A stretch of DNA of 64,000 nucleotides. Source: an uncultured Gammaproteobacteria bacterium (lineage in GTDB: Bacteria; Patescibacteriota; Patescibacteriia; UBA1558; 2-01-FULL-52-15). How positions within the stretch are numbered: position 1 is the stretch's first letter; each line of letters begins with the position of its first letter. The DNA lies in contig CAYOCJ010000002.1 in assembly GCA_964402565.1 (NCBI GenBank), forward strand, positions 170,982 through 234,981, given 5' to 3'. Positions 9,839 through 55,480 of this stretch are shown piece by piece. The translations under genes were made by a program, and so were the position numbers. Under the pieces are notes generated by a model, which was not told the DNA's origin, did not search any database, and saw only the letters and a program-made list of their open reading frames with translations.

Positions 9839-10099
9839 GCGCGGCGACATCCCCTTGAACCCCTGTCGCCGCGCATTTTTTCCTTCCCGCCCAGCCGTCA
9901 GGCCTGACGGCTGGGCGCTAGCCTTGTGTATCTCTTTTTGCTAGAGTGAGTTTTGGATGGGCAAATTTGACCCCGCGCCGCCACAGGCGGCGCGCATCAG
10001 AATTCAGCATCGGGATTTTCATTAAAAAACGTTCGAACTTCGTCCAAAAAGGACCGCCATTGTTTTCTGGACTCATCGAAGATGAGTACGGAAAGCAAT
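9839..10099. repeat. right arm of the 261-bp inverted repeat (IR-R), abutting the tRNA-Ser 3' end
   Basis: Reverse complement of 6177-6437. Its last base is shared with the first encoded base of the tRNA CCA end. Confidence 0.85.
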
Positions 10100-10189
10100 G
10101 GCGGAGACGGGAGGATTCGAACCTCCGAGACCCTTTGGGGGTCTAACGCTTTTCGAGAGCGCCCCGTTCAACCACTCTGGCACGTCTCC
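10099..10189 (-). tRNA. tRNA-Ser (anticodon CGA), CCA encoded
   Basis: Cloverleaf with acceptor GGAGACG/CGTCTCC. Anticodon stem GCGCU/AGCGU with loop CUCGAAA (U33, CGA, A37). Long variable arm GACCC/GGGUC and T-arm GGAGG-TTCGAAT-CCTCC. Confidence 0.9.
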
Positions 10190-10226
10190 ATCCGCGCTTA
10201 GTATACTTATTTCTTGTATTTTTTCA

Positions 10227-11069
10227 ATGCAGAGGCTCTTTATGGTATACTATGCATATCACACTATGACCATTACGTATCCCAAGGGTGACAGTGACTC
10301 ATCAGCCAACCTGAATCCGCCCGCAAGCGCATCGCATCTGACCGCCGTAGCAATTGCGGTAAGCATCGTCTTCCTCGTTGTCGCTGCAGGCTTGTGGTAT
10401 GGCTTTTCGCAATCAAAAAAAGCTGTCGAATCCGTTCCTGCTGCGGTCATTCCGCTGCCTGCATCGCCTGCAGTGGAAGGAGCGCGCGTGTATGAGGCGA
10501 TCGATGGATTACAGCAATGTCAAAAGAATACTCCTGATCTGAACACGGCTGACGCACAGAAGAAGAGGCAGAATTGCTATTATGCGGTCATGACAATTTT
10601 TGCAACATCATCTATTTGCAATATCATTGCATTGGACGGCAGCAGCTCAGATCTTTGCAAGCAAGCAGAAGCCCGTTTCATCAAGGATTATCCGAACGGC
10701 ATACCGAAAACGGATATACCGCTAGTCGGTGCAAAGACAAATGCAAATTCAAATCCCTCCGTTCCTGGCTCCGGCGGTTCGGCAGGGTTAGGCACGAAAG
10801 GTAGCACTGGATCCACCGGCGGTAGCGGAGGGATAAACTCGAATACGAACACGCAATCTAATACAAATACCGGCTCGCAGAACACGAATACCAACTCAAC
10901 AAGCAATGCGAATACTTCCGGCAATACTAATACTGCGGGCAATTCCAATAGTTCGACCAGCCAAAACAGCAATAACAACAGCAATCAGAACGAAACATCA
11001 AATGATCTGCCCCCATGCCTGAATGACGGTGGTGAGCCGACCTTGTTGCAGCATACCAACTGCCAATAG
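10227..11069 (+). CDS. membrane-anchored protein with an Asn/Thr/Ser/Gly-rich low-complexity C-terminal tail
   Basis: Single TM (LTAVAIAVSIVFLVVAAGLWYGF), then NTNTQSNTNTGSQNTNTNST... Start taken at an ATG downstream of the tRNA (10227 or 10266). The ORF-track start at 10098 overlaps the tRNA and is rejected. Confidence 0.5.
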   Translation: MQRLFMVYYAYHTMTITYPKGDSDSSANLNPPASASHLTAVAIAVSIVFLVVAAGLWYGFSQSKKAVESVPAAVIPLPASPAVEGARVYEAIDGLQQCQKNTPDLNTADAQKKRQNCYYAVMTIFATSSICNIIALDGSSSDLCKQAEARFIKDYPNGIPKTDIPLVGAKTNANSNPSVPGSGGSAGLGTKGSTGSTGGSGGINSNTNTQSNTNTGSQNTNTNSTSNANTSGNTNTAGNSNSSTSQNSNNNSNQNETSNDLPPCLNDGGEPTLLQHTNCQ

Positions 11070-50720: not shown

Positions 50721-50846
50721 CGGCCTCGTCAGCACCGTCATTTCGAGTGAGCGGAGCGAATCGAGAAATCCCGGTGAGATAGAGTTAGCCTTTCTACCAA
50801 CGGGATCTCTCCACTCCGCTTCGCTTCGGTCGAGATGACGAGGCCG
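50721..50846. repeat. ~125-nt imperfect palindromic element (outer 11-bp stem cggcctcgtca/tgacgaggccg) immediately after uvrB
   Basis: Seen directly. Arms share agcggag and gaga(a/g)atcccg segments. Not simply a short hairpin plus T-run. Confidence 0.6.
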
Positions 50847-50974
50847 CCATTCTTTCTATAAAAAGAAAAGCCCCGATCCGTACCGCACTGGTTGTTCCAG
50901 TTTGGATTGGATCGGGGTCTTGTGCGGCCAGGTTGTTCGTTTGAACGACCTGGCCGTAGTCTTCGTTGAGCTTT

Positions 50975-51454
50975 CTAGTGGATATCGGGCATCGTCGGGT
51001 CGCAGATCACAGGGATCCCACGATGGTAGCCCATCAGGCCGCCGTCGATCCCGTCGCTGCTCTGCTCGCCCCAGCCGCCGTCCTGTTTCATGAGGACGAC
51101 TGCATGGGTGAAGCCTTGGAGAACTCGCCTCTCGTTTTTCGAGATGCGGACGTTCTCGACGCCGGCGACATGCCCGGCCTTGCAGCGCTCGACGATGTCA
51201 GCGTAGATCGCATGACGGCGCTCCTCATCCGAATCACGGTACGTGCCGTTGCCCCCGTTCACTCCGTCGCTGCATCGGACCGCGTAGACTTCCCCGGTTT
51301 TCTGATCCGTGAAGTACTCGTCCCACGCCATGCCGTAGCACCCGCCGATGGCTTCCGGGTCGAAGTCGTCGCCGCGCTTGTTCGGGTCGCCGTCGGCCCG
51401 AAGGTCGAAGATGTCGGCGAAACGTCGTTGCTGGATCCCGCTGGCCAGTGTCAT
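50975..51454 (-). CDS. hypothetical soluble protein (high-GC island 2)
   Basis: ATG with SD aggaggtga. The 159-aa product is Gly/Asp-rich with no recognised domain. Coding GC is about 58-60%. Confidence 0.5.
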   Translation of the reverse strand: MTLASGIQQRRFADIFDLRADGDPNKRGDDFDPEAIGGCYGMAWDEYFTDQKTGEVYAVRCSDGVNGGNGTYRDSDEERRHAIYADIVERCKAGHVAGVENVRISKNERRVLQGFTHAVVLMKQDGGWGEQSSDGIDGGLMGYHRGIPVICDPTMPDIH

Positions 51455-51466
51455 CGTGTTTTCCTT

Positions 51467-52018
51467 TCACCTCCTGAAGAGGAGGATCGTGAGAACCAAA
51501 CCCTGAATTCCGAAGAAGGCGACCGGCTGTGCGCCGCTCGCAATGGACCAGTGACTGACCGAGAGAAGCGCGCAAACGCTTCCGGTAACAGTCACGATCC
51601 ATGCTGACAGACTTTCGTGATGGGGTTTAAGCCACGCGTTCCTGAATGTCGGGTATGCAGCGATCACATTCGCCAGGAGGCTGAAGATGATCGCTGTCTC
51701 AGGCTGGCCAAACAAGAACAGCATGCTTATACCAGCGCCGACAGCACTTGCTTTGTCGCTCCAGTGCCATTCGGGGTCGCCGTACTTGCGTGCAAGATAG
51801 GCGACGATGATGGCTCCGAAGAAACAGACGATGATCTGTCCGTTTGTTTCTCTGCGCAGCAACATGCCTGCCGCTGTGATGGTGTCGAGGATGGACCAGA
51901 TGATCCATGAAGCCTTGGCCGGCTTGCAGCCTTTCTTCACGATGGCGTGGATATACAAGGTGAAGGAAGCCGCCGTGAAGATCCCTGATAGGATCGAGAA
52001 GACGTAGTACCAGTTCAC
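51467..52018 (-). CDS. hypothetical polytopic membrane protein, paralog of the next gene (high-GC island 2)
   Basis: GTG start at 52016-52018 with SD aggagga 6 nt upstream. Shares KPxxASW...W and PTxxxxxxxPxxESxxxW blocks with the 52033..52653 product. The longer ORF-track version (to 52426) overlaps the neighbour out of frame and is rejected. Confidence 0.5.
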   Translation of the reverse strand: MNWYYVFSILSGIFTAASFTLYIHAIVKKGCKPAKASWIIWSILDTITAAGMLLRRETNGQIIVCFFGAIIVAYLARKYGDPEWHWSDKASAVGAGISMLFLFGQPETAIIFSLLANVIAAYPTFRNAWLKPHHESLSAWIVTVTGSVCALLSVSHWSIASGAQPVAFFGIQGLVLTILLFRR

Positions 52019-52032
52019 GATGGTTCCTCCTG

Positions 52033-52653
52033 TTATGCCGTGAAGGATTCTTTTCTCCGCTGCCTGCAGAGAAATGCAATCGCTCCATGGCAGATGAGCA
52101 GTACCAGTGGCGTGATCAGCCCGATCAACTTCGTGGTGCCCATGTCGATGGACAACAGAACATTCACGGTGCTCATTGAGAATGCAATTGTCCAGAGTAC
52201 CCACGGGAGAGGGGATTCTTTGAACGGATTTGCTTTCACTCCATCGAGCGTCGGTTTGAACGAGATGAGGAACGCCAAAAGCACGATCATGTTCGCGCTG
52301 GTGGCGCTGCGAAGCGCCCACCAGATCAAGATTGCGAGCAAACCGAGTGCGAACAGCGCACATTCCTTTGGCGTAAGCCGGGAGAATTTCCCGATGAAAA
52401 GCACGTAGATGAAAGTGAGCATGCATGCTACCGATCCGGTCATGAACTGAAGCGACGCCACAACATCTCCGCTCATCTGGAAATAGGAGAGAGCATTGAG
52501 TGTGGCGAGAAACGCCCAGAGACTCCAGCTTGCAGCATTGGGCTTAGAACTGCCCAATTTAGCCTGCCGATTGTAGAGAAGGTAGGCGACGCCGTGCAGG
52601 ATCGCTGCACAAACAGCAATGACTATGGCCAGCTTGTGCATGGCGACCCCCAT
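52033..52653 (-). CDS. hypothetical polytopic membrane protein (high-GC island 2)
   Basis: 206 aa, about 6 TM helices. Paralogous to the 51467..52018 gene. Confidence 0.55.
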   Translation of the reverse strand: MGVAMHKLAIVIAVCAAILHGVAYLLYNRQAKLGSSKPNAASWSLWAFLATLNALSYFQMSGDVVASLQFMTGSVACMLTFIYVLFIGKFSRLTPKECALFALGLLAILIWWALRSATSANMIVLLAFLISFKPTLDGVKANPFKESPLPWVLWTIAFSMSTVNVLLSIDMGTTKLIGLITPLVLLICHGAIAFLCRQRRKESFTA

Positions 52654-52747
52654 GATTTCGAAGTTAGTTGTAAAAGAGCTCTAGTCTAAGCAGATTTTGC
52701 CTAGGTTACCACGTGAATGGTAATTATATATGATAGCATTTTATTAA

Positions 52748-52780
52748 CCTTTTGTCAATATTAGCCAAATCCTGTACTAT
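52748..52780 (+). promoter_or_regulatory. sigma70-like promoter (TTGTCA-17-TACTAT) upstream of the truB fusion gene
   Basis: ttgtca atattagccaaatcctg tactat is 7 nt before the ATG region. Confidence 0.4.
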
Positions 52781-52786
52781 AGAGGT

Positions 52787-53905
52787 ATGCAAAAAGTACT
52801 TATCTTCGGATCATTCGACATTCTGCACCCAGGCCATATTTTTGTGATTAAGGAAGCGATGAACTATGGCGAGGTGCATGCGGGCTTTGCTTTGGACGAA
52901 ACCATAATCAAACTTAAAGGGAGGCTGCCATATAATTCATTGGAAGTACGTATGAAGAATATTGAGGCGTATGGAGTTACGCCTCATGCTGGTGACCCAG
53001 TTGATCGATTACGGGTGGTGCGAGAAGTAGATCCGGCTATCGTAGTGCTTGGTCATGACCAACATTTCTTTGTGGATGCCCTGGAAGAATATCAACGCAC
53101 ATCAAAACCCGACTTGAAGATTATTCGCATCGGCTCATTCCATGATCAGTTGTTTAGTTCATCAAAGTTTCGAAAAGTTCTTGAAGATGAGAAAGCTGGA
53201 TTTTTACTGATCGATAAAAGATCAGGAGAGCCTTCGCTTCGTACGGTTACAAAATTAAGGAATAGTACTGGCATCAAGCAAATTGGCTTTTCAGGCACCT
53301 TAGATCCATTAGCGTCGGGTTTGCTCATTTGCGGCATCAGCCGCGCAACAACGCTTCTTGACTGGTTTCATTTTTTTCCTAAAACATACGAAGCAGAGTT
53401 GAAACTTGGCGAGGCATCTGATACGTATGACAGTGAAGGCAAGGTAGATTTGGTTTCAGATCGGATCCCCTCAGAAAAAGAAATCACCGGTGCACTAGCA
53501 ATGTTTCTCGGAAATACATCTCAAGAACCGCCTATGTTCTCCGCAAAGAAAGTTCAGGGAAAAAAATTGTACGAGCTTGCACGAAAAGGTCATACGGTTG
53601 AAAGGAAAAGGCAAACTATTAGCATCGATTCTATTGAGATGATGGATTACCAATATCCGAAGCTCGGTTTTAGAGTTACTTGTTCAACAGGCACCTACGT
53701 GCGCTCTCTCATACACGACATTGGCCAGAAGCTGGGCGTGGGCGCTCATATGACCGCATTGCGAAGGCTCGCTATAGGTCCATACAACGTGGAACATGCC
53801 ATTGATCTTACTGCGAATATTGGCTCGGAGTTTTCAAGCAATAGAGTCAGTCCGGAAGATGTGCGCATGAAGCTGAACGAGCATATATGGCGAAGGAACG
53901 CTTGA
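52787..53905 (+). CDS. truB: fusion protein: FAD-synthetase-like nucleotidyltransferase N-domain plus tRNA pseudouridine(55) synthase TruB
   Basis: Residues ~1-150: FGSFDILHPGH (HxGH nucleotidyltransferase motif) ... VVLGHDQHFF (FAD_syn pattern). Residues ~165-372: TruB catalytic GTLDPLASGLL, FSAKKVQGKKLYELARKG and TGTYVRSL. Confidence 0.8.
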   Translation: MQKVLIFGSFDILHPGHIFVIKEAMNYGEVHAGFALDETIIKLKGRLPYNSLEVRMKNIEAYGVTPHAGDPVDRLRVVREVDPAIVVLGHDQHFFVDALEEYQRTSKPDLKIIRIGSFHDQLFSSSKFRKVLEDEKAGFLLIDKRSGEPSLRTVTKLRNSTGIKQIGFSGTLDPLASGLLICGISRATTLLDWFHFFPKTYEAELKLGEASDTYDSEGKVDLVSDRIPSEKEITGALAMFLGNTSQEPPMFSAKKVQGKKLYELARKGHTVERKRQTISIDSIEMMDYQYPKLGFRVTCSTGTYVRSLIHDIGQKLGVGAHMTALRRLAIGPYNVEHAIDLTANIGSEFSSNRVSPEDVRMKLNEHIWRRNA

Positions 53906-53958: not shown

Positions 53959-54225
53959 ATGGCACACAAGAAACACGCAATTAAAGCGAAGAAGCAGGCT
54001 GATAAGCGCTATGCACGAAACCGAACGCTTTTGAAGAAGATCAAGGATGTCCGCAAAGCTGCTGAGAAAGCGATCATGGCGAAGAATGCTGACGGCGCAA
54101 AAAAACTCTATCATGATCTGCAGAAATTAGTTGATAAAGCCTCCAAGAGCTTCATCAGCAAAAACACTGCCGCACGCTACAAGTCAAACCTGGCAAAGAA
54201 GATCAAAAAACTCCTCGCGAAGTAA
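53959..54225 (+). CDS. rpsT: 30S ribosomal protein S20
   Basis: MAHKKHAIKAKKQADKRYARNRTLLKKIKDVRK... is the typical basic S20 sequence. A terminator follows. Confidence 0.93.
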   Translation: MAHKKHAIKAKKQADKRYARNRTLLKKIKDVRKAAEKAIMAKNADGAKKLYHDLQKLVDKASKSFISKNTAARYKSNLAKKIKKLLAK

Positions 54226-54239
54226 TTGTCCCGCAAAGA

Positions 54240-54275
54240 TACCGCCCCTGCCGAATGGCAGGGGCGGTTTTGAAT
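54240..54275 (+). terminator. intrinsic terminator of rpsT
   Basis: ccgcccctgcc-gaat-ggcaggggcgg followed by tttt. Confidence 0.7.
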
Positions 54276-54287
54276 TAAAATGATGAA

Positions 54288-54321
54288 CCCGCCGTTCGTT
54301 TTCTACTAGGCGGGTTCTTGT
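54288..54321 (-). terminator. intrinsic terminator of the 54325..55398 gene
   Basis: gaacccgcc-loop-ggcgggttc hairpin directly 3' of the minus-strand stop. Confidence 0.5.
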
Positions 54322-54324
54322 TGT

Positions 54325-55398
54325 TCATTGGAGTGATTGCTGTGCTCGTAGATAGAGCGTCGCGCTCCAGAGCTGTTCATGTGCTCCATAGCCGTTGCCT
54401 GATTCAGGGTCGTACCACTCACGGAAGCCCTTGAGTGCGGAGAGTTTTGCAAATTGCTCTTGGGCGAATTCGGCTTCTCCCATCGCATCGAGCGCTAGTA
54501 CGGTGAAGCCTACGATGAACGGCCATACCACGACTCCATCTGTTCGCTCGATAACGCTGGCTTCTTCTGCCGAGGTCGGATTGTGACGACACTTGATGCT
54601 GACACCATACTGAGTGTCGACTGACCGGAAACCAGCAACGACGTCAGGAAAGCGGGATGGCGGGACGACATCGAATATGATGGCGAGCGCTGCACCCAAC
54701 GGGTCGAATCGTGTCGCGCCCGGGTAGTCCATGAGCTGCGAGCCGCTCCAGAATCGCTGGTCGATGCGTTGCCTCAGTGCAACAGCTTCATCTACTTTGT
54801 TGAGCTGCAAGTAGACATGGTAGAGGATGCTGTTATTTGTGAGCAGCGCTTTATCGTTCAGTTCGCGATGCATCGTGTCGCGCCAGTCAGCCCCAAGGAT
54901 CAGGCCGTCATGCATCAAAGAGGTCTCGACGTAGCTCAGCGCGCGTGAAATCTGCTCGCTGTATGTGTCGATCAGGCTCCAATCATTTGCCTCCCGTGCA
55001 TACGTGAGCATGCCAAGAAGGTACATGATCTCAGAATCGCGCGTTCCAGGCGTCAGGTTCCACAGTTCGCCTGCAAGGAATCGCTTGAGCATGAAAGACA
55101 TTTTGCGCGTTCGAATGCTCTTTGCGAGCTTGCTTGCGAGCCAGGCGAAAGTACCATCCAGGTACAAGATCGGGATTTGGCCATTCGGTTTTTGCCGTTT
55201 GGAAAGGTTCTCGAGGTGGTTTCGAACATCCGCGAAGCGTTTTTGTGCCAACAACACGGGCATGATGGCCAGCATCATATCACGCGTCCAGCACTGATGC
55301 GCATAACGCGTTGGGTCGGCCCAAATACCTTTGCGCCCGACGCAGCGCTCAAGTATTTCCTGAGCTTCCGTTTTCTTGCTCTGTTCAGCGAGGGTCAT
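54325..55398 (-). CDS. putative (alpha/alpha)6-barrel glycoside hydrolase (neutral invertase / glucosidase-like)
   Basis: 357 aa, all-helical with the pattern ...ILGADWRDTM...WPFIVGF.... Reminiscent of the GH100 / amylo-alpha-1,6-glucosidase families. Assignment is tentative. Confidence 0.4.
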   Translation of the reverse strand: MTLAEQSKKTEAQEILERCVGRKGIWADPTRYAHQCWTRDMMLAIMPVLLAQKRFADVRNHLENLSKRQKPNGQIPILYLDGTFAWLASKLAKSIRTRKMSFMLKRFLAGELWNLTPGTRDSEIMYLLGMLTYAREANDWSLIDTYSEQISRALSYVETSLMHDGLILGADWRDTMHRELNDKALLTNNSILYHVYLQLNKVDEAVALRQRIDQRFWSGSQLMDYPGATRFDPLGAALAIIFDVVPPSRFPDVVAGFRSVDTQYGVSIKCRHNPTSAEEASVIERTDGVVVWPFIVGFTVLALDAMGEAEFAQEQFAKLSALKGFREWYDPESGNGYGAHEQLWSATLYLRAQQSLQ

Positions 55399-55480
55399 TT
55401 TTTTCTCCCTTACTCAAAGATCAATTGATGAACAGATCTTTGTACTTGATTTTATCGAAAAAAGCAATACCCGGCTTTCA

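Follow-up and report, generated by a model that had tools for sequence, protein, structure and literature searches.

A putative RibL-type FAD synthase domain joined to a minimal TruB pseudouridine synthase in Patescibacteria

The closest described relatives of the protein reported here are the FAD synthases of the RibL type and the tRNA pseudouridine-55 synthase TruB. Synthesis of flavin adenine dinucleotide (FAD) has been shown biochemically for EhFADS of Entamoeba (PMC11423594) and, as related in that paper, which cites Mashhadi 2010, for RibL of M. jannaschii. Rodionova et al. reported that RibL orthologs were not found in Bacteria (PMC5397151), and Nelson and Stegen described Parcubacteria without ribF and ribK/ribL that have yet kept MurB and TrxB, which are FAD enzymes (PMC4508563). 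Here we describe a gene in a 64-kb stretch of contig CAYOCJ010000002.1 (64,000 nucleotides; hereafter the window, by which we mean this whole stretch) that encodes a RibL-type domain directly in front of TruB. We found no description of a TruB-FAD synthase fusion in the literature, including that on the flavin genes of Patescibacteria (candidate phyla radiation, CPR). Both component families are known, and the fused architecture is visible in databases but unremarked, being labelled TruB.

The N-terminal part of the fusion protein resembles RibL, EhFADS and the structure 3glv in being a PF01467 Rossmann nucleotidyltransferase (NT) of about 135–150 aa, and it shares with the RibL family the motif GxFDxxHPGH, an invariant arginine (R55), LGxDQ and the K/S-S-S motif. 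Unlike RibL it is bacterial, is covalently joined to TruB, is without Cys126 and Cys143 and departs from the family consensus by four substitutions. The C-terminal part has a complete catalytic domain, with the aspartate of GTLDP and the conserved tyrosine and arginine, as in TruB of E. coli (1k8w) and T. maritima (1r3e/1ze1). It differs from canonical TruB in having no PUA domain, in carrying Phe168 for His43 and in being preceded by an enzyme domain of 133 residues. With bacterial RibF (PF06574 + PF01687) the fusion shares a presumed adenylylation of flavin mononucleotide (FMN), truB as genomic partner and membership of the HxGH superfamily, whereas it belongs to another family, has no kinase half, is fused rather than adjacent to truB, and has the order NT-TruB, the reverse of truB-ribF. 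The FMN adenylyltransferase module of RibF is also longer, at about 185 aa against about 135 aa for the NT domain of the window, as in RibL.

Two enzyme families in one reading frame

The fusion gene (Table 1) is a single open reading frame (ORF) of 372 codons plus a stop, giving a protein of 372 aa with zero internal stops. Its frame begins past a TAA at 52745-52747, there is no other start 5′ of the ATG, and the N-terminus of the protein (MQKVLIFGSFDILHPGH) agrees with the N-termini of its homologs. In Pfam searches the protein matches CTP_transf_like (PF01467) over residues 6-129 (E 1.2e-9), TruB_N (PF01509) over residues 158-305 (E 4e-46) and TruB_C_2 (PF16198) over residues 306-341 (E 4e-12). 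An earlier reading made from the DNA letters and their translations (the sequence-only reading) had proposed an HxGH nucleotidyltransferase ahead of a complete TruB core, and this architecture was borne out, with H14-P-G-H17 in the first half and a match to the TruB model TIGR00431 in the second (residues 137-342, 210.8 bits against a cut-off of 151.45); no hidden stop separates the two parts. There is no flexible linker, as the junction of 4 residues enters the first TruB strand, G-F-L-L-I-D-K, directly. Across 55 aligned homologs the junction is free of stops and frameshifts, and its residues are kept, D134 in 39/55, A137 in 46/55 and K144 in 55/55. An AlphaFold2 model of the fusion, made with the fusion alignment, has a predicted local distance difference test score (pLDDT) of 93.6 and a predicted template modelling score (pTM) of 0.89; such a high pTM for a two-domain protein suggests a defined, compact packing of the halves in the predicted structure. 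A Foldseek search of the model against the PDB gave no chain spanning both halves.

A profile of the N-terminal half, built from 25 NT domains (alignment A1) and searched against PDB sequences, matches 3glv, a Thermoplasma volcanium protein of 143 aa, from end to end with E 8.9e-34, followed by ethanolamine-phosphate cytidylyltransferase (ECT; E 7e-21), glycerol-3-phosphate cytidylyltransferase (GCT; E 4e-15), archaeal PPAT (E 2e-4) and the bacterial RibF structures (E about 0.2). 3glv is also the top Foldseek match of the N-domain of the model, with a template modelling (TM) score of 0.83 and a 2.2-Å root-mean-square deviation. The sequence of M. jannaschii RibL (MJ1179) was confirmed by an exact-match look-up (WP_010870692.1 / UniProt Q58579 RIBL_METJA), and Q58579 is also how the paper on Entamoeba FADS (PMC11423594) identifies RibL. 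RibL is 44% identical to 3glv, and the NT domain of the window is 41% identical to RibL over 97 residues (E 4e-18). At the level of profiles, hhalign aligns the NT profile with RibL over 129 columns (probability 99.9%, E 3e-32), and the NT hidden Markov model (HMM) gives 121.6 bits to RIBL_METJA, 118.9 to 3glv and 59.1 to GCT. A word-indexed search with the N-domain alone returned no match (zero shared words); with the NT profile against 5.8 billion proteins, the best matches were standalone PF01467 proteins of 130–150 aa from DPANN archaea and Patescibacteria, which carry the names 'FAD synthase' or 'FAD synthetase' in NCBI, UniRef and JGI. Judged from these sequence and profile matches, the N-domain belongs with the archaeal FAD synthases of the RibL type and is not a truncated RibF.

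The residues that mark this family are strongly constrained. In the NT half G8, F10, H14, P15, G16, H17, R55, D91 and Q92 are invariant in the 55 fusions, and HxGH is present in 55/55 fusions and in 100% of 204 standalone relatives. The window NT domain itself has R55, G89, D91 and Q92. Standalone RibL-like proteins from Patescibacteria and DPANN archaea (e.g. P0187, P0221, P0234, P0141) align with the window NT domain along its whole length at 33-38% identity. Unlike the window domain they are single-domain proteins and have the full RibL consensus (ARD, GYDQ, KSS), and one of them, P0234 from Kerfeldbacteria, lies in the same slot upstream of rpsT-holA-polA.

The TruB half matches solved TruB structures over residues 136-356 (E 1e-37, identity 33-35%), and Foldseek aligns it with 1k8w, 1r3e and 1zl3 at E about 1e-26 (1k8w 3e-26). 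K144, D173, Y201 and R306 are invariant in 55/55 fusions. The last three we take to be the equivalents of D48, Y76 and R181 of E. coli TruB, from what is known of the family and from the alignment with solved TruBs. In the C-terminal tail there is no Pfam match to PUA, TruB-C_2 or TruB_C. T. maritima TruB aligns through residues 2-221 of its 309 only, and about 230 columns align structurally. Standalone TruBs of Patescibacteria, with 223–261 aa, are also without PUA, and the loss of PUA is therefore a feature of the phylum and not a consequence of the fusion. The equivalent of E. coli His43 is Phe168 in the window protein (codon 53288-53290), and Phe is found at this position in 32/55 fusions and His in 23/55. 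Phe is likewise found in the TruB-only derivatives P0100 to P0111, and His, in the form G-H-x-G-x-L-D-P, is kept in ordinary TruBs and in proteins with the opposite domain order (TruB-NT, see below). The TruB half is, by these alignments, a complete, minimal, PUA-less catalytic core, and we assign it as a tRNA pseudouridine-55 synthase.

The sequence-only reading knew of no such fusion. In public data it is widespread. In a homolog survey of the best 120 protein clusters, about 88 have the same NT-TruB architecture, with lengths of 364–446 aa and identities of 36-62%, and the sources named by organism are all Patescibacteria, e.g. Komeilibacteria and 'Patescibacteria group'. The public label of the fusions is just 'tRNA pseudouridine(55) synthase TruB', whereas among the standalone proteins of Patescibacteria some are by now called 'FAD synthase' by automated annotation. 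Mean pairwise identity among the 55 fusions is 50% for TruB, 39% for NT and 21% for the C-terminal tail, and the divergences of NT and TruB are correlated (r = 0.73). Such correlated divergence is the expectation for one gene that evolves as a unit. Both halves are under constraint.

Candidate activity and competing explanations

When 1.84 billion representatives were searched exhaustively with the HMM, 322 clusters of RibL-like domains came out at E <= 1e-30, mostly standalone. Among 40 longer representatives the partners are the bacterial-type riboflavin kinase PF01687 (5), the archaeal CTP-dependent riboflavin kinase PF01982 (1), NUDIX (6), TruB (5) and Ham1/ITPase (3), and in single cases DNA_alkylation (P0261), D-aminoacyl-tRNA deacylase (P0257), a class I methyltransferase (P0360) and an AAA_18 kinase (P0375). 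The domain is also found with tandem AsnC-type helix-turn-helix regulators (P0244, P0250). One RibL-Flavokinase protein, P0290 (locus L092, 3840-5700), is a RibF-like architecture made of a RibL-type domain and a bacterial Flavokinase, and its gene lies directly upstream of those for riboflavin synthase (Lum_binding) and lumazine synthase (DMRL_synthase). Four further RibL/Flavokinase fusions occur, in both orders (P0320, P0335, P0361, P0384). Lastly, P0288 (locus L009, 992-2131) carries a RibL-like domain at the C-terminus of an S4 + PseudoU_synth_2 pseudouridine synthase of the RsuA/RluB type, a family without sequence relationship to TruB. These fusion and operon links, taken with the activities proven for RibL and EhFADS, support FMN adenylyltransferase as the function of the family.

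We think it probable, from its sequence relationships, that the product of the gene is a true bifunctional protein composed of a RibL-type FAD synthase and TruB, and for the NT domain of the window taken by itself we hold FAD synthase activity to be fairly likely. Residues 1-133 would convert FMN and ATP to FAD and pyrophosphate, as in M. jannaschii RibL and Entamoeba, and would be the most likely source of FAD synthase in a group without bacterial RibF, while residues 138-341 would, as a minimal TruB, isomerise tRNA U55 to pseudouridine via Asp173. The two chemistries would be independent of each other, the halves being packed, as predicted, into one compact body and transcribed with rpsT, and the benefit of the fusion would lie in co-expression. 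FMN adenylyltransferase was also the activity implied by the sequence-only reading, and this is probably right. A RibL-type domain inside 'TruB' genes would fill the reported FAD synthase gap in many Patescibacteria/Parcubacteria genomes and would correct metabolic reconstructions of these ultra-small symbionts, and a bifunctional label is probably due to about 90 clusters that now go under the name 'tRNA pseudouridine(55) synthase TruB'.

Several observations weigh against this assignment. In pairwise comparison M. jannaschii RibL is about equally similar to B. subtilis GCT (E 1e-17) and to the window NT domain (E 5e-17). The window protein has the substitutions R36L (ARD to ALD), E52L, Y90H and K124S, although conservation at each of these positions is 88% or more among standalone proteins (position 124 is K in 93% of them), its closest relatives are likewise off the RibL consensus at these four positions, and the fused clade as a whole is relaxed at second-tier positions, with R36 kept in 45% and Y90 in 49%. 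Because of the four substitutions, substrate specificity or activity could have drifted. Both Cys of M. jannaschii RibL (C126, C143) are absent, and the fused domains have no conserved Cys column (maximum 23%). These Cys have been linked to the air sensitivity of M. jannaschii RibL, and the active Entamoeba EhFADS is without them (PMC11423594), so they are not an essential feature of the family. A search and the Pfam analysis of 20 other ORFs in the 64-kb window, which is only a fraction of the genome, found no riboflavin kinase, flavin transporter or flavoprotein, and neither a second copy of RibL nor other RibL-fusion partners were found in the window. Finally, the NT half has been discarded by some lineages and is dispensable in at least some genomes, and as the RibL-like domain is promiscuous, its fusion to TruB may be a joining of neighbours in compact genomes rather than a coupling.

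The substitutions and the relaxed positions could alternatively mean that the N-domain keeps the RibL fold and its ATP motifs but has shifted in substrate or role, towards adenylylation or cytidylylation of another phospho-metabolite or towards acting on or with RNA, with the pseudouridine synthase fusions reflecting functional coupling and not flavin metabolism. The joining of the domain to TruB in both orders and to the RsuA/RluB-type synthase in P0288 would fit such a shift, as would the compact predicted two-domain body and a TruB without PUA. We consider this possible though doubtful, since the residues that are strictly invariant in the 204 standalone proteins, including R55, D91 and Q92, which are not part of the generic ATP motifs, still stand in 97% or more of the fused domains, the NT profile scores the characterised RibL at twice GCT, family members fused to riboflavin kinase or encoded in a riboflavin operon are equally close, and the domain is also joined to many unrelated partners.

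A further reading would have the N-domain catalytically dead, or nearly so, and serving in place of PUA as a structural, tRNA-binding or nucleotide/flavin-sensing module. This would agree with the lack of PUA, with the tight, linker-free joining of the domains and the high pTM, with the faster evolution of NT than of TruB (39% against 50% identity) and with the loss of NT in some lineages. It is distinctly unlikely in our view, as HxGH, R55, D91 and Q92 are invariant in 55 fusions whose identity falls as low as 36%, which would be difficult to account for if there were neither catalysis nor at least binding of a substrate, and as PUA-less TruBs of 223–261 aa stand alone in the same phylum, so that no replacement module is needed.

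The sequence-only reading had seen in the N-domain the FAD_syn pattern of RibF and had considered a remnant of operon fusion, i.e. that the domain is the FMN adenylyltransferase half of RibF left over from a truB-ribF operon, with the kinase lost and the order changed. The riboflavin kinase half is indeed missing, with no PF01687 found in the fusion protein by Pfam, and truB-ribF adjacency is common, but the FAD_syn pattern did not hold up. The fusion protein has no match to PF06574, and the RibF models of NCBIfam (TIGR00083, NF004162, NF045965) reach 12-16 bits against cut-offs of 184-241; such weak, sub-threshold RibF-model and PF06574 matches as there are cover about 25-35 residues around HxGH (about 25 for the NCBIfam models). 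The length of the domain and the contrast between the PDB matches to RibF and to 3glv tell the same story. Being of the archaeal RibL type, the domain cannot simply be what is left of a fused truB-ribF operon minus the kinase half, and we regard a RibF origin as very improbable and, as far as sequence and profile go, as refuted.

That sequencing or assembly error, a missed stop or a frameshift merged two neighbouring genes is a negligible concern, for which we found no supporting point: the frame is uninterrupted, the junction is conserved in the 55 homologs and the same in the roughly 88 homologous clusters from many samples, and a protein identical to the window fusion (P0001) is found in independent NCBI and Logan assemblies.

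Linkage of truB with FAD synthase genes

The sequence-only reading had drawn attention to truB and ribF as neighbours, aptly so. We sampled truB loci from species-representative genomes of many phyla by a profile scan with full-length alignment; among the matches listed, ribF lies directly downstream of truB on the same strand in 25 of 77 ordinary loci, recognised as a RibF-sized ORF with a riboflavin-kinase domain. The NT extension is not present in 77 of 80 truB loci among these matches, and the N-domain is thus not a normal extension of TruB, a possibility that had been left open before. Four candidate single-frame TruB-RibF fusions (L065, L041, L037, L064) were rejected; these are separate, overlapping genes in different frames of high-GC DNA.

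As ribF often follows truB, the fusion in Patescibacteria keeps an old linkage between truB and FAD synthetase, with a non-orthologous enzyme. It would be a clean example of an ancient linkage that was kept while the enzyme itself was swapped. A function might lie behind this association of FAD synthase with pseudouridine synthase. The grounds for such a reading are that TruB is joined to the domain in both orders, that P0288 exists, and that ribF follows truB in about a third of ordinary bacteria. We suggest two ways in which such a coupling might work. In the predicted structure the NT domain is tightly packed, and it might contact tRNA in the PUA-less TruB of Patescibacteria. Or it might tie the formation of pseudouridine-55, or the chaperoning of tRNA, to flavin/ATP status, e.g. 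by serving flavin-dependent modification enzymes of the T-loop or anticodon loop. The promiscuity of RibL fusions in compact genomes favours simple fusion of neighbours and co-expression, and we hold it unlikely that the association is functional and not one of genomic convenience. If functional coupling were true, it would be the first mechanistic reason for the long-observed linkage of truB and ribF, and the recurrent fusion makes this unexplained association experimentally approachable in a single polypeptide.

Locus and history of the fusion

In the window the genes are arranged in the order FemAB, RuvA, pilin-like, UvrB, a GC-rich island, NT-TruB, rpsT, glycoside hydrolase (GH)-like, holA and polA. 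The features of the fusion gene and its immediate surroundings are collected in Table 1. The only promoter-like site 5′ of the gene ends 6 nt ahead of the ATG and a GAGG lies 1 nt from the start, so that the mRNA may have little or no leader. The fusion gene is probably co-transcribed with rpsT, which in other Patescibacteria lies downstream of fusion, TruB-only and RibL-only genes alike.

Table 1. Coordinates of the fusion gene, its parts and adjacent features in the window
Feature	Position	Strand	Description and basis
Promoter-like site, TTGTCA-17 nt-TACTAT	52752..52780	+	Consensus scan, 9/12 matches; weak (6 sites in the region against 3.5 +/- 1.6 by chance)
Whole fusion gene	52787..53905	+	RibL-type nucleotidyltransferase, short junction, TruB
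NT domain, residues 1-133	52787..53185	+	RibL-type (archaeal-type) FAD synthase / FMN adenylyltransferase-like Rossmann domain; PF01467, 3glv and RibL matches
HxGH motif, H14 P15 G16 H17	52826..52837	+	Read from sequence; signature by which the nucleotidyltransferase superfamily binds ATP phosphate
Second nucleotidyltransferase motif, S124 S S K F R129	53156..53173	+	ISST-like; family consensus K-S-S-K-(I/L)-R, equivalent to ISSTxxR
Junction, residues 134-137, D-E-K-A	53186..53197	+	Consensus D-x-x-A; alignment of 55 fusions
TruB catalytic domain, residues 138-341	53198..53809	+	TruB_N + TruB_C_2; Pfam, TIGR00431, Foldseek
Asp173 codon, GAT	53303..53305	+	Catalytic aspartate of G-T-L-D-P; sequence, aligned with the T. 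maritima TruB catalytic motif
C-terminal tail, residues 342-372	53810..53902	+	Two predicted helices (346-352, 356-369), poorly conserved; at the place of the canonical PUA
rpsT (ribosomal protein S20)	53959..54225	+	PF01649, from gene calls on the identical contig
Intrinsic-terminator-like hairpin and T-run	54241..54268	+	12 bp, 10 GC; strong; closes the fusion-rpsT unit

The slot held by truB in this block has different occupants in different genomes. It holds the fused NT-TruB gene in L010 and L011, TruB only in L006 and L033, a standalone RibL-like gene in L004 and L005 (Kerfeldbacteria), and a gene of the opposite order, TruB-NT, in L008 (Jacksonbacteria) and L029. Apart from this slot, L010 and L006 are identical gene for gene. 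The TruB-only protein P0111 of L006 (6001-6786) is 59% identical to the TruB half of the fusion P0080 of L010 (6001-7104), and its N-terminus aligns with the last NT helix and the junction (TKKQSIISDPQA against SKLRSVLEDRNT); TruB-only proteins of this kind have 250–261 aa. With this vestige of NT in P0111 and the perfect synteny, the arrangement looks like a secondary loss of the NT domain. In Kerfeldbacteria (complete genome CP181398.1) a standalone RibL-like gene of 138 aa (L004/L005, 6001-6417) lies directly upstream of rpsT-holA-polA. The intergenic DNA was examined for decayed sequence, of NT upstream of the TruB-only gene in L006 and of TruB behind the standalone RibL gene in L004/L005, and showed no significant trace of either.

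The sequence-only reading had described the order of the fusion as reversed. The NT-TruB order stands, and the TruB-NT order also exists, in P0093, P0095, P0110, P0263, P0265 and P0313 of Jacksonbacteria and other Patescibacteria (loci L008, L014, L029). These proteins agree with the window fusion in their two domains, in their RibL-type motifs and in the syntenic locus (uvrB ... rpsT-holA), and differ from it in the opposite domain order and in keeping the His43 equivalent. Their NT domains are about 50% identical to standalone RibL-like proteins and about 33% to the NT-TruB group, and this greater likeness to the standalone proteins points, on sequence grounds, to a separate fusion event for TruB-NT. 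In a plain neighbour-joining tree all NT-TruB domains form one clade and TruB-NT falls at four places; among 100 bootstrap replicates an NT-TruB clade excluding TruB-NT appeared in 14%, and TruB-NT was never monophyletic. The opposite orders call for at least two fusion events, and given the low bootstrap values we claim nothing beyond that. In the history that we propose, the fusion would have arisen within Patescibacteria at FemAB-RuvA-UvrB-[truB]-rpsT-holA-polA and radiated as a single gene, would have been assembled at least once more as TruB-NT, and in some lineages would secondarily have shrunk to TruB or to RibL alone.

Three of the loci that carry the fusion, L011, L014 and L029 (CAZXCJ010000004.1, CAYYGX010000019.1 and CAZBWF010000066.1), are titled 'uncultured Gammaproteobacteria bacterium'. 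L011 has 29% GC and the synteny FemAB-RuvA-[NT-TruB]-S20-HolA-PolA of the Patescibacteria type, and on account of its GC content and synteny these titles look like mislabels.

Elsewhere in the window, an ORF of 323 aa at 10098-11069 (+), without a Pfam match, overlaps a tRNA gene at 10102-10189 (-), and the start of this ORF is probably spurious. The fusion gene itself is flanked by GC-rich islands at 50800-52600 and 54200-55400, with a GC content of 0.53-0.64 against a background of about 0.44. The ORFs of the islands, 50975..51454 (-), 52033..52653 (-), which encodes a membrane protein, and 54325..55398 (-), have no Pfam match or a sub-threshold one (MGH1-like GH). Horizontal transfer may have inserted the islands into a syntenic block that is conserved apart from them.

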